Part shown: piece by piece, positions 11,685 through 25,422 of the stretch | Numbering within the stretch: the first letter of the stretch is position 1 | Layout: each line of letters begins with the position of its first letter | Origin: Erysipelotrichaceae bacterium | Lineage (GTDB): Bacteria > Bacillota_I > Bacilli_A > Erysipelotrichales > Erysipelotrichaceae | NCBI GenBank assembly: GCA_963663995.1 | Contig: OY760660.1 | Span: 960,001-992,000, forward strand | Reading direction: 5' to 3' | DNA: 32,000 nucleotides | Position numbers and translations under genes: made by a program | The notes under the pieces: model-generated | Told to the model about the DNA's origin: nothing | Databases searched by the model: none | The model's input: the letters and a program-made list of their open reading frames with translations, nothing else

Positions 11685-13015
11685 TGATTAGGTCCAAACA
11701 TTAAACCAAATCCACTATCTTGATTTGGTACCACAATTTCTAAACCTTCTAAATTGTCTCCAATAACTTCAACTCGATAAACATCGGCAAAACCGGTTGT
11801 GACTGGGATATAGAAATCTGATTGCGGACGGCCAGGATTATCCATCCAAGCAGCATCAATCACAAATCGATCTGTCCCTTCACTTACTAAAGCTTCATAA
11901 GGAATCACTAAAATATTTGTTTTTGATTCAACAACGATTGAAGCTGAACCACTCATGCCTAAGAAGATAGGACTATCTGCACCATCAAATTCGATGGTAA
12001 TAGGATAGGTTGTATAGTCTAAATTGGTATTACCAATTTGAGAAATCTTAACAATGTGACCATCAAAACTTTGATTTACTGACTCTACATAAATGCTCAC
12101 TTTTTGATCAAAAGATATTTTATGAATATCTGTTTCAGCAATATTAACAACAAGTTCTAATGCATCAGAATTAGAAATAACCACATCGCCACTCAGAGCA
12201 CTTGAAACAGATGAAACAACACCATCTCGTGTTGCGATAATTTTCGCATCAACAGCACGAGCTTGATAGCTTCCTAAACTTTGGCCACTGTTGACATAAT
12301 CACCAACACTAACATTTGTACTTAACATTGTTCCATTAACATCAATCTCACGAGGACTACCATATGAAATACTTCCATGATAATACGTATTACCAGTATC
12401 AGGAATGTCGATTTTCGCAACCGCACTCATCCCTACAACCACTTTATTGGATGTATTTGTAAATTCTAATCCAATCATATATTGACCTAATGCATTTACA
12501 TTACTAGACTTAGATCTGACTTGACCATAAAAGGTTTCATCAGTTGCTTGCACATAAACTTCCGCATATTGACCTAAACTAATTTTATTAATTTGAAACT
12601 CATTAACCGGCATATCCATCGCAAGAATGGAGTAGTTAGAAATTTCAAATGTACTATCTAAACTATTTGCCACCTTAGTAATTACACCTGATGTTGGAGC
12701 GTATAATTCTTGGGCTGTTGTGCTTGTTTTGGTGTATTCACCTAAAATATCACCTTTCGCTACGACATCACCGACTTCCACAAACATCTCTGAAACGGCA
12801 CCTGATAATTTAATTGTATCTTCATCAGAAGATTGAATTTTACCTGTCGCAATTGAGACAAGTTCTATATCTCCTCGGCTAATCGTTGTGACTTCTGCAC
12901 TATTAGCCATTGACCCTTGTGCTAGGTTTCTTAAACCAAAAAATCCAGCTAATACAATGACAACAATTATCCCTAAAACGATTAACCAACGTTTTGTTTT
13001 CTTTTGTTTTTTCAT
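11681..13015 (-). CDS. Membrane-fusion / periplasmic-adaptor-like protein (HlyD family) of the ABC system
   Basis: 444 aa with an N-terminal TM (WLIVLGIIVVIVLAGFFGL) followed by beta-rich barrel-sandwich-like repeats (GDVVAKGDILGEY, VSVGDYVNSGQSLGSY). It is the first gene of the three-gene operon. The SD is AAGGAG. Confidence 0.75.
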   Translation of the reverse strand: MKKQKKTKRWLIVLGIIVVIVLAGFFGLRNLAQGSMANSAEVTTISRGDIELVSIATGKIQSSDEDTIKLSGAVSEMFVEVGDVVAKGDILGEYTKTSTTAQELYAPTSGVITKVANSLDSTFEISNYSILAMDMPVNEFQINKISLGQYAEVYVQATDETFYGQVRSKSSNVNALGQYMIGLEFTNTSNKVVVGMSAVAKIDIPDTGNTYYHGSISYGSPREIDVNGTMLSTNVSVGDYVNSGQSLGSYQARAVDAKIIATRDGVVSSVSSALSGDVVISNSDALELVVNIAETDIHKISFDQKVSIYVESVNQSFDGHIVKISQIGNTNLDYTTYPITIEFDGADSPIFLGMSGSASIVVESKTNILVIPYEALVSEGTDRFVIDAAWMDNPGRPQSDFYIPVTTGFADVYRVEVIGDNLEGLEIVVPNQDSGFGLMFGPNQ

Positions 13016-13893: not shown

Positions 13894-13915
13894 AAAAAAA
13901 GGACTTTCGTCCTTT
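13894..13915 (-). terminator. Intrinsic terminator after the VOC gene
   Basis: In the minus sense: AAAGGAC GAAA GUCCUUU followed by UUUUUU. The stem overlaps the VOC stop codon (13915-13917). Confidence 0.75.
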
Positions 13916-14388
13916 TAAACATTACCAACAACTTGAAGACTACCTTCAGTGTATTGCATGATTTCGAATTTATTGCCTTCAGGATCATGAATCCACATTT
14001 GCCATGTTCTTGATGGACCAATATTCGGTTCAACATCGATTTCAACACCTTTTGCAACAAGTTCATCTCGTGTTTTATGAATATCATCAACCAGTAATGC
14101 AAAGTGAGAATATCCAACATGTTCATTCCACTCTGTATGTGGTTTTTGATTTCCATTTGTAGGGAATAATTCAATAAACTGACCTGGTGCTAACTCAATA
14201 TAAGTTAGAAAAATATCATTCGGTCTTTCTTCTGCTAACTTCTTAAAATGCGGTTTTGGTGAATCTTTATAAACACCATAACGGGTTAATATTTTTTGTT
14301 TGAGTCCCAATTTATTGACGTAGAAATCGACCATTGTATCAAAATCATCTACATAGAATGAGACATGCATCACTGATTTAAAATTCAT
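13915..14388 (-). CDS. VOC (glyoxalase/bleomycin-resistance/dioxygenase) fold protein
   Basis: 157 aa with two VOC-like modules (MHVSFYVDDFDTMVDFYVNKLGL and YSHFALLVDDIHKTRDELVAKGVEI). Its start codon directly abuts the upstream stop (TAAATG). Confidence 0.75.
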   Translation of the reverse strand: MNFKSVMHVSFYVDDFDTMVDFYVNKLGLKQKILTRYGVYKDSPKPHFKKLAEERPNDIFLTYIELAPGQFIELFPTNGNQKPHTEWNEHVGYSHFALLVDDIHKTRDELVAKGVEIDVEPNIGPSRTWQMWIHDPEGNKFEIMQYTEGSLQVVGNV

Positions 14389-15339
14389 TTAATTTAGCTC
14401 CTTTTTAATTTCTGTGATTAATTTTATTAATTGAATAGAGTCTTGATGAGACATCCGTTCATCTTCATATTTTTTATTTTGAATACCTTTTTGTACAGCT
14501 TCGATTTCTCCAAAGAAATCATCTGTATTGTCTTCGTACTCACTAACTTGACCACTATCTAAACTGACTTTTATTTTGCTTGCGCGATGATAATCTGTCA
14601 CAAAGATAGATCCTTTATCACCAATAATCGTCATATTACGATCAATGTTTCTATCTAATGCATTATTCGCATAGCCAATCACACCATTATCAAATTCAAG
14701 GGTAATCCGCTCATAAGCATCAACAGCTTTTTTCATGTCACAGTCTGTTTTAATTGATTTGATATCACTCTTTATTAGATCAAGGATAGCCCCTAAAGTA
14801 TAGGAACCCACATCATAGAGAATCCCGCCTATTTGTGAATCATATAAATAACGAGCATGTTCATCAGGAATCATATAACCAAAACCTGTTTCAATACTTT
14901 TTACTTCACCAATAACTTTTGTATCTAATAATTCATGAAGTTTTACATTCAAAGGCATAAAACGTGTTTTTAGTGCTTCGACAAACATCACATTATTTGC
15001 TTTTGAGATATCTACTAAATCCTGTGTTTCTTCAACACTTAAGGTTGCAGGTTTTTCACATAAAACAGCCATCCCTTTTTCCAAAGCTTTTTTAGCCCAA
15101 AGATAGTGATCATTATGTCGTAATGTAATGTAGATAGCATTTACATTAGAATCATTTAATAATGCATCATAGTCTGTGTAAGTCACACAGTTTGGATAGT
15201 CTGATTTAATCTTATCTAATTTTGATTCAGTTCGACTGGCAATCGCATAGAGTTGTCCACTCTCACTTAAACTTAAACCTTTTAGAAAGCGGGTATAGGT
15301 TGAACCCAAACCAATTATTGCCCAATTAATCTTTTTCAT
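14389..15339 (-). CDS. Gfo/Idh/MocA family NAD(P)-dependent oxidoreductase (third copy)
   Basis: I place the start at ATG 15339 (MKKINWAIIGLGS, a Rossmann GxGxxG-like motif), preceded by GAGG 9 nt upstream; the track start is a TTG. The EKP motif is present (VLCEKPA). Confidence 0.85.
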   Translation of the reverse strand: MKKINWAIIGLGSTYTRFLKGLSLSESGQLYAIASRTESKLDKIKSDYPNCVTYTDYDALLNDSNVNAIYITLRHNDHYLWAKKALEKGMAVLCEKPATLSVEETQDLVDISKANNVMFVEALKTRFMPLNVKLHELLDTKVIGEVKSIETGFGYMIPDEHARYLYDSQIGGILYDVGSYTLGAILDLIKSDIKSIKTDCDMKKAVDAYERITLEFDNGVIGYANNALDRNIDRNMTIIGDKGSIFVTDYHRASKIKVSLDSGQVSEYEDNTDDFFGEIEAVQKGIQNKKYEDERMSHQDSIQLIKLITEIKKELN

Positions 15340-15432
15340 TTCAATAGACCTCAATATAATTTTAAATGCAAGACAATGAAATATTTTTCCAATATTTAAA
15401 AAATAATAATAGTTTATTTCAAACTTGCTTTT

Positions 15433-16377
15433 CTATCTAAATGGTGTAGCCATTTTCTTCCAAGTATATTGCTTTCCTTTTATAGAAACTGCTAACTGAT
15501 AAATATTTTCAGGCCATGTTCCTGCCCCAAATCCACCATCACCTATCGCATGGATATCGGCACCGGTTTGTTTCATAAGTAGTGCAACCTGACGTATTGT
15601 ATCTGTATCTGCCATTTCAACACTACTGTTTAGGAAAGTTAAAACTAGTGTTCCTGGTTTATAGCGATGGGTAAACTCTGCCAATTCTCGAATCATTTCA
15701 ACTGTAATACCATGACGACTTCCTGGTGCTGGTAAATCTATGCAATCAGCACCTGCATCAATTAGTTGTTTAATAATGTCTTTTGCATCATATTCAGCTA
15801 AAGGATCACCTAACACCTTTTCATTGATGCCATCTTCCCATTTACCAGCGCAAATAAGAACTTTGTCACCAGCGGTTTCCTTGGCTAGTTTTGTTGCGGT
15901 AATAACATCGGTAATTGATGTTCCACTACCAGGATTTCCCCCTAACACAATAAAATTTGCACCAATTTCAATAACATGTTGAAGATGTTCTTTGGAAAAC
16001 ATCATTCCACTCATCCGTTGAATACCAGGATCATTTAAATCTGAATCCACTTTAGGACAACCCATATAAATGCCCATCGGTTTATTTCCAACAAGCGCTT
16101 TAAGTTCTTGAAAGCTCATACCTTGTAAACCTTTGTTATTTTCTGGTTCATCAATATTGTAAGTATTTAACATCACCATATCCGCACCAAACGCAAACAT
16201 CAGTTCAGTATTGTTCACACCATGACATAAACCTTCATTAGCAAACAACAAATGTTGTCCCATAATGACGCGCCCTTCTGATTTGTAAATAGATTCTTTT
16301 AATTGTTGAGCTGTATACTTCGCAGCTTTACTTGGCTCAGCTGTAATTAATCGTGTTACTTCATAATCTAATTTCAT
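15433..16377 (-). CDS. Uncharacterised protein, probable phosphate-binding (beta/alpha)8-barrel
   Basis: 314 aa. It has a periodic strand-end pattern (FGADMVML, IGANFIVLGGNPGSG, AGADCIDLPAPG, TGADIHAIGDGGFGAG). The glycine-rich C-terminal loop resembles the phosphate-gripping loops of sugar-phosphate TIM barrels. I cannot assign a family. Confidence 0.5.
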   Translation of the reverse strand: MKLDYEVTRLITAEPSKAAKYTAQQLKESIYKSEGRVIMGQHLLFANEGLCHGVNNTELMFAFGADMVMLNTYNIDEPENNKGLQGMSFQELKALVGNKPMGIYMGCPKVDSDLNDPGIQRMSGMMFSKEHLQHVIEIGANFIVLGGNPGSGTSITDVITATKLAKETAGDKVLICAGKWEDGINEKVLGDPLAEYDAKDIIKQLIDAGADCIDLPAPGSRHGITVEMIRELAEFTHRYKPGTLVLTFLNSSVEMADTDTIRQVALLMKQTGADIHAIGDGGFGAGTWPENIYQLAVSIKGKQYTWKKMATPFR

Positions 16378-16389
16378 AACTCATCTTCC

Positions 16390-17037
16390 TTAATGATTGA
16401 TCTCTATCATGTTTCCTAATAAACCAACTACATCACCTGCTTGCACTTTATCAAGATTTTCTTTATGCGTTATGAACCATTTGTTTACTTTCTTTAAAAT
16501 GCCTAAACGATTTTCTATCGCTTGACCTGTACCTTTTAAAAGTAAACAGATTGTTTTAAACCCATATTGATCTACCGCAATCGGCGTATAGTGTAAACTT
16601 GTCGCATAACATTCAACAACACATCCTTTAGGTACGTAGAAAAACTCACAGTTTGATGAATCATACGTTTGATCAATCAAATCCCAGCGATGTCCAACTA
16701 CTAAAACATAATCAGTTACCGCAATGATTGTTTCACTACATTGATGATATTCAAGTCCATTCACAAGTCTATTGTGACCTAGCACAACACCAGCCATGAC
16801 AGGTAAATATCCATAAACTTGTTTCATCAATTGTTTTATCTTGATTTCATTTTCTAAATTCTCAATACTAGGTTCATATTTATTCCCATTCGTCGGGACT
16901 TGGTAGAGCTTATTTACAGCATTTATAACATCATTTAGATTTAGATGAATAATCTCACCATAGGTTTTAAACGAAGTATCTTTGATATCTTTAATATGCA
17001 AGTTTGGATTTAGTGTTTGTAAATCCGCTAATGTCAT
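16390..17037 (-). CDS. Uncharacterised protein (from memory resembles the DUF4867 class; possible cupin-like fold)
   Basis: 215 aa with no catalytic motif I can name. Its start forms an ATGA overlap with rpiB, and a 12-nt gap separates it from the next gene. The family assignment is from memory and unverified. Confidence 0.4.
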   Translation of the reverse strand: MTLADLQTLNPNLHIKDIKDTSFKTYGEIIHLNLNDVINAVNKLYQVPTNGNKYEPSIENLENEIKIKQLMKQVYGYLPVMAGVVLGHNRLVNGLEYHQCSETIIAVTDYVLVVGHRWDLIDQTYDSSNCEFFYVPKGCVVECYATSLHYTPIAVDQYGFKTICLLLKGTGQAIENRLGILKKVNKWFITHKENLDKVQAGDVVGLLGNMIEINH

Positions 17038-17489
17038 TTTAGTTTCTGTCTTTCTTCAATATCACTCAACAAATCAATACGTACTTGATGACGACCACCT
17101 TCAAACTCAGCACTCAACCATTCGTCGACAATCATCTTAGCTAGTTCAACACCGACCACACGTGCCCCAAAAGCTAGCATATTTGTATTATTGTGTTCTC
17201 TTGAGAGTTTAGCAGAATAAGGTTCGCTACAAGTCACACAACGGATACCGTTAACTTTATTGGCTGACAAACTAATGCCTACACCTGTTCCACAGATAAC
17301 AATTCCTTTATCAACTTCTCCTCTCACAACTGCATTTGCGACAGCTTCTCCTGCAACTGGATAATTAAAACGTTCAGTACTATCAGTTCCGAAATTAACT
17401 ATTTCATAACCATATTTTTCAGTGATATAAGCACTAATCGCATTTTTCATATCAATAGCAACATGATCGTTTCCAATACCTATTTTCAT
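17034..17489 (-). CDS. rpiB: RpiB/LacA/LacB-family sugar-phosphate isomerase (ribose-5-P / allose-6-P isomerase B type)
   Basis: 151 aa and collinear with E. coli RpiB as I recall it: GNDHV, the catalytic-Cys loop ICGTGVGISLSANK, SEPYSAKLSREHNNTNMLAFGARVVG and EGGRHQVRI. Confidence 0.9.
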   Translation of the reverse strand: MKIGIGNDHVAIDMKNAISAYITEKYGYEIVNFGTDSTERFNYPVAGEAVANAVVRGEVDKGIVICGTGVGISLSANKVNGIRCVTCSEPYSAKLSREHNNTNMLAFGARVVGVELAKMIVDEWLSAEFEGGRHQVRIDLLSDIEERQKLK

Positions 17490-18829
17490 AATTGTTCTCC
17501 TTTTGTCTCAATAAATTTCTTATACCAATAGAATGATTTCTTAGGTCTTCTTTCTAAAGTATTTTCATCTACATGAACAAAGCCATAACGTTTAACTAAT
17601 CCTTCACGCGTTGAATATAGATCTGTTGCACTCCACGTCATATAAGCTCTGACATCTACACCATTATCAACCGCGTCTTTCAACTGCTTAATATGAGCTT
17701 TTAGATAATCAATACGATAATCATCATTGATTGATCCATTATCTTCGACATTATCATAGGCACCCATGCCATTTTCAGTAATCACAATTGGCATTTGATA
17801 GCGATGTGAGAATTCCTCAAGCATGTGTCTAAATCCATAAGGATCAATATTCCATCCCCAGTCTGTTTGTTTAACATAAGGATTTTTTCCTTTAATCATG
17901 TTAATACCACTTGATCCATCAGTCGCATCAACTGTTGAAGTCATATAATAAGTCAAGCTGATAAAATCAGGTTGAGCTTTACTGATAATTTCTAAATCTC
18001 CATCTTGAATAACAAGTTTTCGATCATCTTCACTATATTGATTTAAGTATCTTTTCGAATATATGCCTTTACAATAAACATCGCCAAAGTTATAACCAAA
18101 CTTGTAATTAAGATCATCTGCTGCTTGAACATTGACAGGATTACAGGTCGCTGGAATGAAACAACAATTTCCAATATTGCCACCCGTTTTAGCGTTTGCA
18201 TCACATTGATGTATTAATTGTGTTGCTTGCGCGTATGCCATATTAAAATGATGTTCCATTGTGAAAATCTCACGGTCATTTTTTGCCTTATATCCTGTCA
18301 TGTATTCAGAATCAATAGCTAAAAAGTTTTGTTCATTAAAAGGTAACCAGTATTTAACTCTTCCCTTAAAATAACTAACAACTGTTTCAACATATTTTAG
18401 ATAATCCTCAACACATTGACGACTCATCCAACCGTTATATTCTTTTAATAAACTTAAAGGTAAATCATAGGCATAGAGCGTACATACTGGTTGAATTTTA
18501 TATTTTTCTAACTCAGTTAACATACGGTCATAGAAATCTAATCCTTCTTGATTAGGTTCATTATCATTCCCATTAGGGAAAATACGAGCCCACGACATCG
18601 TGAAACGATAAATTTCAAAACCCATTTCTCCGTAATATTTAATATCTTCTTCCAAATGGTGATAGTGATCTGCCGCTACTTTAAATGAATCAAAATTACT
18701 ATCCGTAATTGTCTCCATTTCAATTTTACGGACATCAGCAATGCTTAAACCTTTACCGCCATCCGCATATCCGCCTTCAAATTGTTGGGCATTTGTACTA
18801 CTCCCCCACAAAATATCTTGATAAGTCAT
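17486..18829 (-). CDS. GH1 6-phospho-beta-glycosidase (short paralogue)
   Basis: 447 aa with ILWGSSTNAQQFEGG, the acid/base Glu in LPFNEQN and the nucleophile in VITENGMG. The C-terminal WSATDLYS...VKRYGFVHVD carries the S/K/Y phosphate-binding pattern of phospho-specific GH1 enzymes. Confidence 0.88.
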   Translation of the reverse strand: MTYQDILWGSSTNAQQFEGGYADGGKGLSIADVRKIEMETITDSNFDSFKVAADHYHHLEEDIKYYGEMGFEIYRFTMSWARIFPNGNDNEPNQEGLDFYDRMLTELEKYKIQPVCTLYAYDLPLSLLKEYNGWMSRQCVEDYLKYVETVVSYFKGRVKYWLPFNEQNFLAIDSEYMTGYKAKNDREIFTMEHHFNMAYAQATQLIHQCDANAKTGGNIGNCCFIPATCNPVNVQAADDLNYKFGYNFGDVYCKGIYSKRYLNQYSEDDRKLVIQDGDLEIISKAQPDFISLTYYMTSTVDATDGSSGINMIKGKNPYVKQTDWGWNIDPYGFRHMLEEFSHRYQMPIVITENGMGAYDNVEDNGSINDDYRIDYLKAHIKQLKDAVDNGVDVRAYMTWSATDLYSTREGLVKRYGFVHVDENTLERRPKKSFYWYKKFIETKGEQL

Positions 18830-18830
18830 C

Positions 18831-20949
<2,119 letters not shown>

Positions 20950-20993: not shown

Positions 20994-21023
20994 AGAAATG
21001 AGGAATGAACATTCCTCATTTCT
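20994..21023 (-). other. Strong intercistronic hairpin without a U-tract, between the EIIC and epimerase genes
   Basis: Perfect 13-bp stem AGAAATGAGGAAT (20994-21006) / ATTCCTCATTTCT (21011-21023) with a 4-nt loop. In the minus sense no U-run follows it. Confidence 0.6.
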
Positions 21024-21036
21024 TTATTAATTTAAA

Positions 21037-22368
21037 TTATGCGTTTGCTTTTTCAGCTTCAATTTTTGCTAATTCATTCTTTTCATAAACTCTCCAGAAT
21101 GGTAGGTAAATGAAGTAACCAATCGCTACGTTACATGCAACTACGATAATCCATTTCCAGTCACCAGATGAGGCAGGACCTAATAGGAATGGAGGTGTTG
21201 CCCAAGGTAGTGCAGCGAACATTCTCGCGACTAGTCCTAATTGCACAACGGCATATGTGAAGATTGAACTTACAACTTCTGCTAATAGGAATGGAATGAA
21301 TAGAATTGGATTCAATGCTAAAGGTAGACCAAACATAACTGGTTCAATGATTGTGAAGATACCAGCAGGAAGTGCGGTCGCAGCCAATGCTTTTTTACCA
21401 GGAATTTTAGATGTAAACATGAAGATAAAGAGTGGCCATACAGTGGCTGTCCAGTCATGCATACGTTCAAATGGTTGAGTCCAAATATAAGGTAGAGCTT
21501 GTCCAGCAGACACTGCTTCTGCATTAGCTGCAATAGTCATTGTTGTAAAAGGACCTGTAATTGCACCTAACATATTGTCACCATGAATACCAGCAGTCCA
21601 GAATAATTTACGTAGGAATTGTTGGAATGTATAGAACCAAATATTGTCACCAGCACTCATAAGTGGAGCAAGTAAAGTTGTTAACCAACTTGCTAAATCA
21701 AAGCCCAAAACAGTTCTAATTAACCAAGCGACTGTGAATACAACTGTATAAGGAATTAAAGCTGTAAATGAGTCAGCAATCATTGGTGGAACACCATCAG
21801 GCATTTTAATAACAACACCTGAATCAACAACTAATTTATAAAGTCTTACAGATAATAAGCCCACTAAAATCGCTGTAAATAACCCTGATGCACTGAAGGA
21901 TGATACGGGAATTCCTCCAATTGAGAATGGAATCATATTACCAGCTGCATCAGCTACTTCACCACTTAAACTTGTAGTATTAATAGTGATGAGTAAGAAT
22001 GAAACTAAACCTAAGATAGCTGCAGGTTTTGCACCAATCTCTAATTTTGTAGCATATGCCATCGCAATAGTAACTGCTGCATATAAGCCTAAGAAGTTCA
22101 TTGTTAAACCGAAGAACACCAAGAAGTCACCTGCGTATGGTGTTAAAAATGGTAATAAAACCGTAGGTTCACCACCAACTGCAATCCATGGTAAGGCTAA
22201 AACAGATAAAACGAGGCCAATAGACCCAATAATAACGATTGGCATAATACCAACCATACCTTCTTGAAGTGCTTGAACCCAAGGAATGCTCGCTAATTTG
22301 AACATTGGTTCAGCAATCTTCATCGTGAAGGCTTCGACATTTTCGAAGAAACTTTTCTTCTCTGACAT
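21037..22368 (-). CDS. PTS sugar transporter subunit EIIC, lactose/cellobiose (Lac) family
   Basis: 443 aa and polytopic. The N-terminal FMKIAEPMFKLASIPWVQALQEGMVGIMPIVIIGS is typical of CelB/ChbC-type EIIC. The SD is AAAGGAG. No EIIA or EIIB ORF is present anywhere in the window. Confidence 0.85.
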   Translation of the reverse strand: MSEKKSFFENVEAFTMKIAEPMFKLASIPWVQALQEGMVGIMPIVIIGSIGLVLSVLALPWIAVGGEPTVLLPFLTPYAGDFLVFFGLTMNFLGLYAAVTIAMAYATKLEIGAKPAAILGLVSFLLITINTTSLSGEVADAAGNMIPFSIGGIPVSSFSASGLFTAILVGLLSVRLYKLVVDSGVVIKMPDGVPPMIADSFTALIPYTVVFTVAWLIRTVLGFDLASWLTTLLAPLMSAGDNIWFYTFQQFLRKLFWTAGIHGDNMLGAITGPFTTMTIAANAEAVSAGQALPYIWTQPFERMHDWTATVWPLFIFMFTSKIPGKKALAATALPAGIFTIIEPVMFGLPLALNPILFIPFLLAEVVSSIFTYAVVQLGLVARMFAALPWATPPFLLGPASSGDWKWIIVVACNVAIGYFIYLPFWRVYEKNELAKIEAEKANA

Positions 22369-22467: not shown

Positions 22468-23436
22468 TTAGGCGTCCGCTTGAAAGCGAACATTTGCACT
22501 TAATCGTGCGTTTGTAAGTAATTCCATACGATGTTGAATGACTTCGAATTGATTTTCTAATGAATGAAAATCTTTGTTTTTATATATCATTTGAAATGTT
22601 TGAATCTCATAGAAAAGTCTATTTTTTTCTTCTTGGATATTGAATCTCTCACCATCTATATCGAAGGATGCTAGTCCATTGATCCCTTGATTTAATTCAA
22701 TACATCCCTTCTCTCCATGAAAGATTCCACTTGGTTTGCCCTTGGCATTCTTTGCCGCAAGTGCACTAACCTTAAATTCACCGTAATCCATCATTAGTAA
22801 ACCCGATACATCAATACCGTTGTTAGCTAATACTGGATAATAATTGATTACCTGTGGATCACCTAGAACATTTAAGACAAAATGCAGGTGATAAATATTG
22901 AGATCCATCAGTGCGCCACCCGAGAACGCAGGGTTGAATACATTGGGTACTTCCCCACGTTTGAATTCATCGTATTTTCTCGAGTATTGACACATGGATA
23001 GTTCTACCCATTTTAGTGGGCCTATAGTATCTAATTTAGATTTCAACAGATCTAAATTAGGCATATAGTTAATGGACATCGCCTCAAATAGAAATAATTT
23101 CTTCTTCTTGGCTAAATCGATAATCTCTTGTGATTCACGATCTGTTGAACAGAATGGTTTTTCTAGAATCACATTTTTATTGGCATTCAAGCAATCTTTT
23201 GCTTGTTGATAATGAAGACTATTGGGTGATGCGATATAGATCGTATCAAAGCTATTTGAATGAATGAATTTTTCATAATCGTCATAGGCTTCCAACATAT
23301 TGAAGCTATCAACCAATTCATTCGCTTTAGCTATTGTTCTTGAATAGGAAGCAATCAAATCAACACCATCGACACTTTTGCAGGCATCTAGAAATTGAAT
23401 GACAATGAATCCACTACCTATCGTTCCAAGTTTCAT
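22468..23436 (-). CDS. Gfo/Idh/MocA family oxidoreductase (second copy)
   Basis: 322 aa with MKLGTIGSGFI (Rossmann) and the EKP motif (VILEKPF). Its start forms an ATGA overlap with the upstream gene. Confidence 0.85.
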   Translation of the reverse strand: MKLGTIGSGFIVIQFLDACKSVDGVDLIASYSRTIAKANELVDSFNMLEAYDDYEKFIHSNSFDTIYIASPNSLHYQQAKDCLNANKNVILEKPFCSTDRESQEIIDLAKKKKLFLFEAMSINYMPNLDLLKSKLDTIGPLKWVELSMCQYSRKYDEFKRGEVPNVFNPAFSGGALMDLNIYHLHFVLNVLGDPQVINYYPVLANNGIDVSGLLMMDYGEFKVSALAAKNAKGKPSGIFHGEKGCIELNQGINGLASFDIDGERFNIQEEKNRLFYEIQTFQMIYKNKDFHSLENQFEVIQHRMELLTNARLSANVRFQADA

Positions 23437-24455
23437 TTGTTTAAGCTAGCCTCAGCTTCCTTAACAATATTTAAGACAAACAATATTTCTTCTGGTTTAA
23501 CAATAAGTTCTCCATCTCCATTGATTACTAAATCTAAGTTGTTATAGATCTTTCCATATTCAGAGACTTCAGTTTGAATATATGTATCAACATCGTTTCC
23601 ATCTTTATCTATATACGATAGATGTCCCCAATTACTTTCTGGCTCTGGATCAAAGCTAACCACTACTGGTTCAGTTCTATTTGAACTTAAATGTCCTTGG
23701 GTGTTTTTAATAAAACTACCTTGGGTTCCATGAGCGATAAATTTTGGGAAATCAATCTTGGCACTCATGCTTGTTTTAACGGTAAATTTCATTTTCTCAT
23801 AATAGAAATCAATATCGATATTGTCATCAAACTCTGAAACAACAGACCGAACATCATATCTAATCTTGTCTGGTTTTCCAAAGAGATAGACCATTTGATC
23901 GATTGGGTGAATCGCTAAGCCAGATACCATTGTCATTTGACGTGGCATATTTGGGTCCGCTTTTTGATAACCTGGTCTGAAATAGTGGTAGTGTGATTGA
24001 ATTTCAACAATATCCCCTAAAACATGTGAATCGATTACTTTTTTAAGTGTTTGCATATCAGCATCGAATCGACGGTTATTATTACATGAGATAACTAGAC
24101 CTTTTTTATCAGCCAATTTAAATAATTCTTCAGCCTCTTTAATCGTGTTTGTAAATGGTTTTTCAACCAAGACATTCTTACCTGCCTCTAAACATTTTTT
24201 TGCGTATTCATAATGCACATCAACGTGTGTATTGATAGAAATTAAATTAACTTCTGGATCATTTAAGACTTCATCAAAATCCGTTGTAAATTTAAATTCA
24301 GGGTATAGTAACTCACGTTCCATTTCACCTGCTAATTCACGATCTTCTTGACGACGATAGACCCATTTCACATTTACATTTTTATTGTCTTTAATAAAAG
24401 GCAAGTGGTAACGTACAACACTATTTCCAAATCCAACATAAGCAACCGTTAGCAT
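23433..24455 (-). CDS. Gfo/Idh/MocA family oxidoreductase (first copy, first gene of the operon)
   Basis: I place the start at ATG 24455 (MLTVAYVGFGNS), preceded by GAAGGGG 6 nt upstream. The EKP motif is present (VLVEKPF). Confidence 0.85.
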   Translation of the reverse strand: MLTVAYVGFGNSVVRYHLPFIKDNKNVNVKWVYRRQEDRELAGEMERELLYPEFKFTTDFDEVLNDPEVNLISINTHVDVHYEYAKKCLEAGKNVLVEKPFTNTIKEAEELFKLADKKGLVISCNNNRRFDADMQTLKKVIDSHVLGDIVEIQSHYHYFRPGYQKADPNMPRQMTMVSGLAIHPIDQMVYLFGKPDKIRYDVRSVVSEFDDNIDIDFYYEKMKFTVKTSMSAKIDFPKFIAHGTQGSFIKNTQGHLSSNRTEPVVVSFDPEPESNWGHLSYIDKDGNDVDTYIQTEVSEYGKIYNNLDLVINGDGELIVKPEEILFVLNIVKEAEASLNK

Positions 24456-24498
24456 TTTGTTCCCCTTCTTTCTACACAAGCAAAATACCAACTTTAAC

Positions 24499-24534: not shown

Positions 24535-24587
24535 AATTACATTAATTTTTCATAAATTGATATTATTTTGAAATTCAATTACATTAA
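24535..24587. repeat. Two direct copies of AATTACATTAA spaced 42 bp apart (possible RpiR operator)
   Basis: The copies are at 24535-24545 and 24577-24587, with flanks also similar (TCgAATTACATTAAtTT and TCaAATTACATTAAaTT). They lie between the rpiR -10 element and its start codon. Confidence 0.45.
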
Positions 24588-24606
24588 ATTAAAGGATTAT
24601 ATAAAT

Positions 24607-25422
24607 ATGATTAAACGTAGACTTTTAGAAACCGACCACCTTTCATCAAGCGAACAGACTATTGCCAAATATATTTTGGACAATCCTGAATGTGTTTTAA
24701 ATTGCACTGCAAAAGACCTAGCCGCTCTTGTTTACACATCTTCACCGACAATCATTCGCTTTTGTCGTAAACTAGGTTTTTCAGGATATCCAGATTTCAG
24801 ATATCAATACATCAAAGAACTTTCAGCTATGCCAAAAGAAAAAGAAGAAATATCTGTCTCTTCTTCATTAAATGATGTTTTGAGATTATTGCCCATACGT
24901 TATGAACTTGTCGCAAAGAACAGTGCTGATCGTATTGATACAAAAGAATTTGCTTATATAGTTTCTGAATTTAGAAAAGCTAGTAATATTGATTTTTATG
25001 CAACAGGAATTAATTTGGGAATAGCACAAGCTGCTTGTGTACGGTTTAATAATTTAGGTTATCACGCTCAGGTTCAATTAGGCATTAATAAACATTACAT
25101 CGTTTCTCAAACCCCTCAACAAAGAGAAAAGACATTATCCTTTATCATTTCTCATACCGGGACTAATGAGTCTGTCATAGAAGTTGCTCATTATTTAAAA
25201 GAAGTTCATATGAAGATGGTACATTTAGGACGTACAAACAATAAACTCTATGACTTAGCTGATTATCATATTCTATGGGATAATGATCGTTATGATCATC
25301 GTTATGATAATTTATCGTATCCATTATCATTAATGTTTATATTGGATGTTTTATACTTAGAGCTTACTAACATCAAAAAATATAATGACCCTGAAACAGA
25401 TGAAGTCATTAAACCTATTTAA
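24607..25422 (+). CDS. RpiR/MurR-family transcriptional regulator (HTH_6 + SIS)
   Basis: I place the start at ATG 24607 (MIKRRLLE...), preceded by AAAGGA; the track start at 24568 is a TTG. The N-terminal EQTIAKYILDNPE...AKDLAALVYTSSPTIIRFCRKLGFSGYPDFR is the RpiR HTH. The C-terminal half has SIS-like length and pattern. Confidence 0.85.
   Translation: MIKRRLLETDHLSSSEQTIAKYILDNPECVLNCTAKDLAALVYTSSPTIIRFCRKLGFSGYPDFRYQYIKELSAMPKEKEEISVSSSLNDVLRLLPIRYELVAKNSADRIDTKEFAYIVSEFRKASNIDFYATGINLGIAQAACVRFNNLGYHAQVQLGINKHYIVSQTPQQREKTLSFIISHTGTNESVIEVAHYLKEVHMKMVHLGRTNNKLYDLADYHILWDNDRYDHRYDNLSYPLSLMFILDVLYLELTNIKKYNDPETDEVIKPI

Follow-up and report, generated by a model that had tools for sequence, protein, structure and literature searches.

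Among described systems, the one closest to the locus studied here is the D-allose cassette of Listeria, lmo0734 to lmo0739, which confers growth on D-allose and in which the genes for the regulator, Rpe, and RpiB are required (PMC5893763). When the cassette lacked lmo0737, the growth rate on allose decreased from 0.150 to 0.108 optical density units per hour, approximately 28% slower, but the cells still grew; omission of lmo0738, a gene of the phosphotransferase system (PTS), cost the same growth (PMC5893763). Allose induces lmo0737 (PMC11323731). Its product is annotated as a hypothetical protein of the TIM phosphate-binding superfamily and is dispensable for any obligatory step from allose to fructose-6-phosphate. 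In the literature, we found no function for lmo0737 and no mention of the Pfam family DUF7916. A second precedent is the family DUF4867, for which the structure is a cupin dimer with a metal modeled as Fe and, after a soak with sulfofructose, an unidentified ligand on the metal (PMC11968277). Here, we analyzed a stretch of 32,000 nucleotides from an Erysipelotrichaceae bacterium (the window; contig OY760660.1 of assembly GCA_963663995.1, positions 960,001 to 992,000) and, within its sugar operon, two adjoining genes downstream of rpiB, encoding a 215-amino-acid (aa) DUF4867 protein and a 314-aa DUF7916 protein.

The initial annotation had listed both proteins as unassigned, which holds for their function but not for their family. 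In the Pfam search that it had proposed, both matched well above the gathering scores: the 314-aa protein matched DUF7916 (PF25509; gathering score, 27 bits) with 296.1 bits and an E value of 3.1e-88, residues 12 to 311 covering positions 2 to 292 of the 296-position profile, and the 215-aa protein matched DUF4867 (PF16161; gathering score, 28.7 bits) with 184.2 bits and an E value of 2.6e-54. With such scores and hundreds of homologues, sequence comparison confirmed that both genes are conserved to an extent exceeding chance. Both proteins are further members of known families without assigned function. In our reading, to which we give a probability of about 50%, they are accessory enzymes of a PTS-fed pathway for an allose-type rare hexose and perform proton-transfer chemistry around the RpiB step. 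This helper role is the most economical reading and agrees with the conserved gene context, the nonessential but growth-promoting Listeria phenotype, and the analogy between sulfoquinovose and glucose-6-phosphate.

Both open reading frames were present as first described, including the ATGA at positions 17037 to 17034, in which the stop codon of rpiB overlaps the start of the DUF4867 gene. The 12-nucleotide gap between the DUF4867 and DUF7916 genes contains the ribosome-binding site AAGGAAG. A terminator scan detected no intrinsic terminator (hairpin plus T-run) between or beside the two genes; its sole match near the pair falls within the coding sequence of DUF7916 and lacks a T-run. For the larger protein, the public annotation gives 272 aa, which is probably 42 codons too short (window positions 16252 to 16377), because homologues of 309 to 315 aa align from residues 1 to 9 onward. 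The start of the 314-aa frame is also backed by a good Shine-Dalgarno sequence, and the shorter call lacks the helix at the N terminus as well as the beginning of strand 1, including the conserved residues R9, E34, R36, and Q41.

The link to Listeria derives from the primers used for lmo0737 in serogrouping (sequences in PMC10541657; published product of 691 bp in PMC11171905), whose translations are GLQGLT and MASRNR. A DUF7916 protein of Enterococcus sp. BWR-S5 contains the two peptides at positions that predict an amplicon of exactly 691 bp, and this protein is 63% identical to that of the window. The Enterococcus genes follow the order LacI-Rpe-RpiB-DUF7916-EIIBC, which is the order of lmo0734 to lmo0738. 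From the primer peptides at 691-bp spacing and the gene order, we infer that lmo0737 encodes a DUF7916 protein of the B1 type (clades are described below). The initial proposal, drawn from gene position, of a role in sugar-phosphate metabolism is thereby strengthened, since the lmo0737 cassette serves D-allose catabolism (PMC5893763). An Rpe/AlsE-like gene, RpiB, a PTS gene, and GH1 are partners shared by lmo0737 and the window protein. The Listeria cassette is a simple LacI-regulated form with an EIIABC of the glucose/beta-glucoside family, whereas in the window the regulator is of the RpiR type and EIIC of the Lac family, and two GH1 genes, DUF4867, three genes for Gfo/Idh/MocA oxidoreductases (GFO), and a VOC gene are present; moreover, the window's DUF7916 protein branches at the base of a clade separate from the B1 group of lmo0737. 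A published guess that lmo0737 is an AlsK-like kinase (PMC5893763) was rejected in that form, as it rests on the barrel superfamily label and no nucleotide-binding family was matched.

Gene context was evaluated for 79 genome loci with B-type DUF7916 from Bacillota and Actinomycetota, dereplicated at 90% identity to 56 clusters, with the window's own proteins used as queries to label neighbors within 6 kb. PTS genes were located near DUF7916 in 80% of the clusters, RpiB in 77%, Rpe/AlsE-like genes in 68%, LacI in 61%, GH1 in 52%, GFO in 27%, and VOC in 16%. The values for RpiB and Rpe bear out the co-occurrence that the initial annotation had suggested examining. Immediately next to DUF7916, the most frequent genes were, on the upstream side, a PTS gene (19 clusters) and, on the downstream side, RpiB (17 clusters). 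A typical B-type cassette comprises LacI, EIIBC, Rpe, DUF7916, and RpiB, and it was found in genomes of Enterococcus, Streptococcus, Paenibacillus, Lactiplantibacillus, Clostridium, and Collinsella as well as in metagenome-assembled genomes (MAGs) labeled Lachnospiraceae, Faecalibacterium, and Atopobiaceae. The window operon bears all three marks of the B-type context, namely PTS, RpiB, and Rpe/AlsE-like genes.

The 215-aa protein, in which no motif had at first been named, carries a cupin metal site, E96-x-H98-x3-E102 ... H149. It is related to PDB entry 9GYY (E value of 1.4e-34 over residues 7 to 213), and a check of metal ligands, as advised in the initial annotation, revealed that this site aligns with all four ligands of that structure. 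The four residues are invariant in 13 cassette homologues. Bacillus megaterium SqvB/SqvD (both names are used) and Eubacterium rectale SftX (PDB 9GYY/9GYZ) belong to the same family, have the same 2His-2Glu site, and, like the window cupin, are encoded beside an aldose-ketose isomerase for a sugar with an anionic C6 group. They operate in sulfoquinovose pathways (sulfo-SFT, sulfo-TK, and sulfo-EMP), whereas the window cupin is part of a PTS/GH1/RpiB operon, and its ligand is therefore probably a 6-phosphate and not a 6-sulfonate. Elsewhere, DUF4867 accompanies isomerases that include those for sulfoquinovose, a 6-sulfonate mimic of glucose-6-phosphate; isomerases of the FucI or RpiB family dominate its neighborhood networks, which also tie it to sulfoglycolysis (PMC11968277).

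The initial annotation had suggested that both proteins act on the same sugar-phosphate intermediate; by their distribution, they are not obligate partners. In most cassettes having DUF4867, it follows RpiB immediately, but it occurs within 6 kb of only 16% of the B-type DUF7916 loci (56 clusters). Among 400 sampled genomes, DUF7916 was above the cutoff in 23 and DUF4867 in 16, and only 2 contained both. Rather than forming a pair, the two proteins are separate additions to one and the same isomerase step, and DUF4867 is facultative.

An AlphaFold2 model of the 314-aa protein, computed from an alignment of 61 diverse DUF7916 relatives, displayed an eight-stranded TIM barrel (predicted local distance difference test score of 93.7 and predicted template modeling score of 0.93), in agreement with the barrel first proposed from sequence periodicity. 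The glycine-rich loop AIGDGGFGAG, noted at the outset, occupies residues 277 to 286, after strand 8. In the model, strand 8 (residues 275 to 278) is followed by G279-D-G-G, a short helix (283 to 285), and a helix from 289 to 300, and strand 7 is followed by S251-S252 and a short helix (252 to 255). As modeled, the Gly-rich loops after strands 7 and 8 and the short helix after strand 8 correspond to the usual layout of a phosphate-binding barrel. The repeated G-A-D/N motifs (residues 64 to 66, 139 to 141, 209 to 211, and 272 to 274) had been described as strand ends. They directly precede strands 2, 4, 6, and 8 and, because they mark strand starts on the bottom face of the modeled barrel, look structural, not catalytic. 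Residues invariant in an 18-sequence B-type alignment, and present in the window protein too, are Q41, E58, N71, Y104, C107, N148, K179-W-E-D-G, R221, E254, H276, and D280. DUF7916 is a small family that forms 361 clusters (50% identity) in a set of 1.8 billion representative proteins, and the source genome has one copy.

If the two proteins are accessory enzymes, EIIC would take up and phosphorylate a beta-glycoside, the GH1 enzymes would release a hexose 6-phosphate, the RpiB paralogue would convert the aldose-6-phosphate to a ketose-6-phosphate, and the Rpe/AlsE paralogue would epimerize the latter to fructose-6-phosphate. DUF7916 would grip the 6-phosphate by its Gly-rich loops after strands 7 and 8 and may employ K179, E254, D280, E58, N71, and N148 for cofactor-free proton transfer on the PTS-made hexose-6-phosphate. 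The reaction could be ring opening or anomerization, or epimerization beside a carbonyl, and would feed or speed the RpiB step; DUF4867 would probably carry out a comparable metal-dependent helper step on the ketose side. The accessory mutarotases and pyranases RbsD, FucU, and GalM are likewise operon encoded and nonessential and speed growth. Their behavior fits the lmo0737 phenotype and the proposal for DUF4867, but their folds are unrelated, and in comparison with them, a 310-aa TIM barrel with many conserved polar residues would be unusual for a mutarotase.

Structure searches, one of the checks proposed in the initial annotation, pointed to TIM barrels in general and singled out no nearest characterized relative. 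Foldseek against the PDB and VIA-align wide returned hundreds of generic TIM barrels with Z scores of 14 to 18, and no solved family stood clear of the rest; the top matches were the pyruvate carboxylase CT domain, the isocitrate-lyase/PEP-mutase group, BHMT (Z score of 17.9), MetH, MJ1099, PdxJ, and HPS. By sequence, the 314-aa protein matched no NCBIfam model and no PDB chain. The ESM Atlas shape search retrieved only DUF7916 itself, and the feature search gave no usable match. In control profile-profile comparisons by hhalign, Rpe scored 35%, DeoC 23%, GH1 0.7%, and non-TIM families 1.3% or less.

The highest profile-profile score of the families tested was obtained for Escherichia coli SgcQ/BtpA (PF03437; hhalign 86%, E value of 4.8e-6). 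SgcQ is a TIM-barrel protein without assigned function, encoded in a PTS operon together with the Rpe-family epimerase SgcE. The alignment to BtpA is two strands out of register (DUF7916 strands 2 to 6 against BtpA strands 4 to 8), and no shared active site was shown; the window protein has no Pfam match to the BtpA model, and 2 of 61 DUF7916 members match it weakly. One A-type locus (L051:2903-10266 in genome G197) is sgc-like, combining DUF7916 with an M42 peptidase-like gene, a GRDB-like fragment, EIIC, and EIIB. In the bacterial family of the window, BtpA/SgcQ has expanded, and one genome has as many as eight copies (genomes G058, G011, and G140; loci L162-L186). NanE, the N-acetylmannosamine-6-phosphate 2-epimerase, is a cofactor-free sugar-6-phosphate epimerase that has a phosphate-binding TIM barrel and a catalytic Lys. 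Weak Pfam matches to NanE were given by 16 of 61 DUF7916 members (best E value, 4.7e-6) but not by the window protein, and a profile search against the PDB produced a local match (E value of 7.7e-4), again two strands out of register (DUF7916 strands 5 to 7 against NanE strands 3 to 5). Genes for NamZ, GH3, and GntR/UTRA just upstream of the actinobacterial operon L187 suggest an amino-sugar context there. The similarities to NanE and BtpA were not used as functional clues: their two-strand shifts run in opposite directions, and we take them as generic likeness of beta-alpha units. A glycoside-hydrolase reading based on the A-type motifs N-L-E-P and T-S-Q-E-G was rejected for the window protein, the first Glu being missing in the B-type.

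The initial annotation had offered an aldolase, lyase, or decarboxylase as possible functions and had advised looking for a Schiff-base Lys; nothing specific to these activities was detected. The corresponding explanation, in which DUF7916 is a Schiff-base (class I-type) aldolase or lyase that cleaves a ketohexose-6-phosphate by means of K179, is very unlikely in our estimation. It would account for the Lys right after strand 5, invariant in 105 tree sequences of all clades (A, B1, and B2), and it agrees with weak profile matches to DeoC, type I dehydroquinase, and 4-(hydroxymethyl)-2-furancarboxaldehyde-phosphate synthase. In 11 of 61 representatives of the family, among them the HPr fusion P0197, however, Arg takes the place of this Lys, and strand 6 ends in P216-A-P-G, without a Lys where DeoC and 2-keto-3-deoxy-6-phosphogluconate aldolases carry theirs. 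The hhalign value for DeoC, just 23%, argues in the same direction. Furthermore, related gene clusters have a DeoC-family aldolase of their own, and Listeria needs AlsE, so that flux proceeds to fructose-6-phosphate.

A tree of 110 sequences separated A-type from B-type DUF7916 with 100% support in the Shimodaira-Hasegawa-like approximate likelihood ratio test (SH-aLRT). A-type genes, from Erysipelotrichales and small TGA-recoding (Mollicute-like) genomes, mostly stand alone, whereas B-type genes, from Bacillota and Actinomycetota, reside in PTS/RpiB/Rpe cassettes. Columns were compared for 16 A-type, 74 B1, and 15 B2 sequences. The active-site face of the A-type displays E41, N104, E106, H181, Q253, H276, and H277, and that of the B-type displays Q41, Y104, G106, C107, W180-E181, R221, V253, and A277, all of which the window protein has; at the B-diagnostic columns, the A-type residues are E41, N104, E106, P107, M180-H181, V221, Q253, and H277. 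Residues common to both types include R36, E58, D66, N71, N148, K179, E254, D274, and D280. The neighborhoods of A-type genes vary (PEPCK, PGK, GltX, YchF, amidohydrolase, HAD, and others), and apart from PTS parts, no partner recurred consistently at these loci. Some very small, Mollicute-like genomes of 0.7 to 0.8 Mb (loci L043 and L046; genomes G307, G003, and G048) retain A-type DUF7916, which is read there through an in-frame TGA and has changing neighbors (GltX, YchF, and amidohydrolase). Retention in genomes so reduced is surprising for a protein of unknown function.

The window protein is the first branch of the 15-member B2 clade (100% SH-aLRT). The remaining members occur in two settings: Longibaculum/Stoquefichus islands with the order DUF7916-RpiB-DUF4867-DeoC-GFO-GH1-VOC, and modules in which a divergent RpiR gene is followed by DUF7916, GFO, GFO, and VOC. 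This placement bears on a different explanation, in which DUF7916, the three GFO proteins, and VOC form an oxidize-epimerize-reduce (or oxidize-eliminate) route: one dehydrogenase would produce a keto-glycoside or keto-hexose-6-phosphate, the barrel would epimerize or isomerize it beside the carbonyl, and another dehydrogenase would reduce it. Such a route would resemble that of E. coli YcjQRS, which turns gulosides into glucosides. Besides the fully supported clade shared with copies of the RpiR-DUF7916-GFO-GFO-VOC module, GFO and VOC genes lie directly after the window's DUF7916, and genomes with two B-type copies keep one by Rpe/RpiB and the other by GFO-GFO-VOC (L053/L096, L082, L101, and L132). 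We nevertheless regard this route as rather unlikely. At positions differing between B1 and B2, the window protein is mostly B1-like, keeping the residues of the simple cassette (H42, L43, F45, G49, T72, H131, and S252); it is the only DUF7916 in its genome and adjoins RpiB and DUF4867; 73% of B-type loci have no nearby GFO gene; and the oxidoreductases match only uncharacterized structures. Several Erysipelotrichales genomes have two to three diverged DUF7916 paralogues per island (L005:9003-10945; L053:7983-8915 and 12033-12968), one beside Rpe/EIIB/RpiB and another beside RpiR/GFO/GFO/VOC, with a tandem arrangement in Stoquefichus.

Linkage to the PTS extends across the DUF7916 family. In an actinobacterial clade, the operon consists of just DUF7916-EIIB-EIIA-EIIC, and several A-type genes also adjoin EIIA, EIIB, or EIIC. 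Two actinomycetotal clusters, P0197 and P0273 (69% identical), have HPr fused to the N terminus of a complete DUF7916, and in one cluster (P0375), EIIB is fused to its C terminus. P0197 is carried on contigs of two assemblies, and P0273 has enzyme I downstream; the fusion loci (L160:664-1950, L187:8001-9302, and L188:738-1748) each belong to an operon with EIIB, EIIA, and EIIC genes. From the PTS operons, these fusions, and the adjacent EII genes, we conclude that members of the DUF7916 family work on the products of the PTS or in concert with them. Fusions with Na/Pi cotransporter, germination protease, and HrcA fragments contained only a partial domain and were taken as gene-call or assembly chimeras.

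The HPr and EIIB fusions could point to a direct coupling of DUF7916 to the PTS phosphorelay, as a phosphoryl acceptor, as a kinase dependent on HPr~P or EIIB~P (compare DhaM and dihydroxyacetone kinase), or as an enzyme docked to the transporter. Operons made up of only DUF7916 and EIIB, EIIA, and EIIC, the frequent adjacency to EIIB or EIIBC, and the equal slowing of Listeria upon loss of lmo0737 or lmo0738 are compatible with this explanation. A fusion may, however, simply tether an enzyme to the source of its substrate, the three clades have no invariant His or Cys in common, and the PTS already supplies the 6-phosphate, the AlsE route needing no second one. We consider such coupling distinctly unlikely. 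For the two domains of P0197, HPr and DUF7916, a complex prediction run without controls scored 0.00, which is no evidence either way. On the strength of the hints from the HPr and EIIB fusions, one may speculate further, as a rather doubtful proposition, that DUF7916 is an unrecognized class of PTS-coupled TIM-barrel enzymes working on or with the relay, which in Bacillota would convert an abundant but unidentified plant or microbial hexose-6-phosphate or glycoside-6-phosphate to allose-6-phosphate or allulose-6-phosphate, with DUF4867 as a second new metal-dependent step. If true, the "D-allose operon" of Listeria and many gut bacteria would serve a different natural substrate.

Several points weigh against the helper-enzyme reading. 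Neither family has a member with demonstrated activity, and assays of DUF4867 for mutarotase, kinase, and binding activity on sulfoquinovose and sulfofructose were all negative (PMC11968277). Since fold matches are only generic, the candidate catalytic residues are guesses from conservation, and the putative link to lmo0737 is drawn from primer peptides and gene order, not from the full Listeria sequence. The B2 clade is often accompanied by GFO and VOC genes rather than by the simple cassette, and the substrate of the window protein may therefore be an oxidized sugar. Finally, no chemical step is missing from allose to fructose-6-phosphate, so that the true substrate may not be allose-6-phosphate; wide retention of a step seemingly unneeded for allose suggests that allose is not the natural substrate. 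The dispensability of lmo0737 for growth on allose, together with the lack of detected activity for DUF4867 despite a structure with a metal-bound ligand (PMC11968277), could instead mean that one or both proteins are noncatalytic and serve, for example, to sense sugar phosphates or as chaperone-like subunits of RpiB or of the PTS. We judge this to be extremely unlikely: polar residues are strongly conserved on the catalytic face of the barrel, the cupin metal site is complete, and both genes are situated within enzyme operons across phyla.

The features of the island are summarized in Table 1. The source genome encodes a second RpiB and a second, better-scoring Rpe elsewhere, and the island's RpiB and Rpe are thus dedicated paralogues beside housekeeping copies. 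PDB relatives of all three GFO proteins and the VOC protein were only uncharacterized structural-genomics entries (YhhX, 2HO5, 3E9M, and 3L7T), so most of the island is biochemically undescribed. Relatives of the island carry a separate DeoC-family aldolase, and in those of Longibaculum and Stoquefichus, the same GFO and VOC pair follows the cassette. DUF7916 was missing from the four other species of the genus that were searched, and the island is therefore accessory. By gene content, it looks like a merger of a LacI-type cassette with an RpiR/GFO/VOC module, and the window is an ordinary composite case rather than a special one.

TABLE 1 Features of the sugar island, with positions counted from the first nucleotide of the window
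Feature	Position	Strand	Basis
VOC/glyoxalase-fold protein, downstream of DUF7916	13915-14388	-	
Third Gfo/Idh/MocA oxidoreductase, downstream of DUF7916	14389-15354	-	
DUF7916 (PF25509) TIM-barrel protein, 314 aa, B-type clade (lmo0737-like)	15433..16377	-	Pfam, AlphaFold2, alignment, tree
DUF4867 (PF16161) metal-binding cupin, 215 aa, translationally coupled to rpiB	16390..17037	-	Pfam, PDB 9GYY
RpiB paralogue, likely AlsI-like hexose-6-phosphate aldose-ketose isomerase	17034..17489	-	Pfam, NCBIfam rpiB
Two GH1 6-phospho-beta-glycosidase paralogues	17486..20291	-	PF00232; NCBIfam 6-phospho-beta-glucosidase models below cutoffs
Rpe paralogue, AlsE-like ketose-phosphate 3-epimerase	20293..20949	-	PF00834; allulose-6-phosphate 3-epimerase model, 185 bits versus cutoff of 271
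PTS EIIC, lactose/cellobiose family	21037..22368	-	PF02378, TIGR00410
Two overlapping Gfo/Idh/MocA oxidoreductase genes	22468..24491	-	Pfam
Divergent RpiR-family regulator (HTH_6 + SIS)	24568..25422	+	

The most useful results of this analysis are the putative link to lmo0737, the clade structure with differing active-site residues, and the HPr and EIIB fusions. lmo0737 is a serogrouping PCR marker for Listeria used worldwide, and deregulation of its operon attenuates virulence in mice (PMC11323731). Many gut Bacillota and Actinomycetota retain B-type DUF7916 in PTS/RpiB/AlsE cassettes; among them are Enterococcus and Streptococcus genomes as well as MAGs labeled Faecalibacterium, Collinsella, Lachnospiraceae, and Erysipelotrichaceae. 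Sweeteners now reaching the diet include D-allose and D-allulose, whose use by gut microbes is under study (PMC12216980). For a step still missing in the use of rare sugars by gut bacteria, the locus offers a good lead, though not the only one. Assigning a reaction to DUF7916, and to DUF4867 the one that the structural study of 2025 did not settle, would round out these pathways and could bring their actual natural substrate to light.

A perfect 13-bp hairpin without a T-run, which the terminator scan detected on both strands, is located between the EIIC and Rpe genes (window positions 20994 to 21023).

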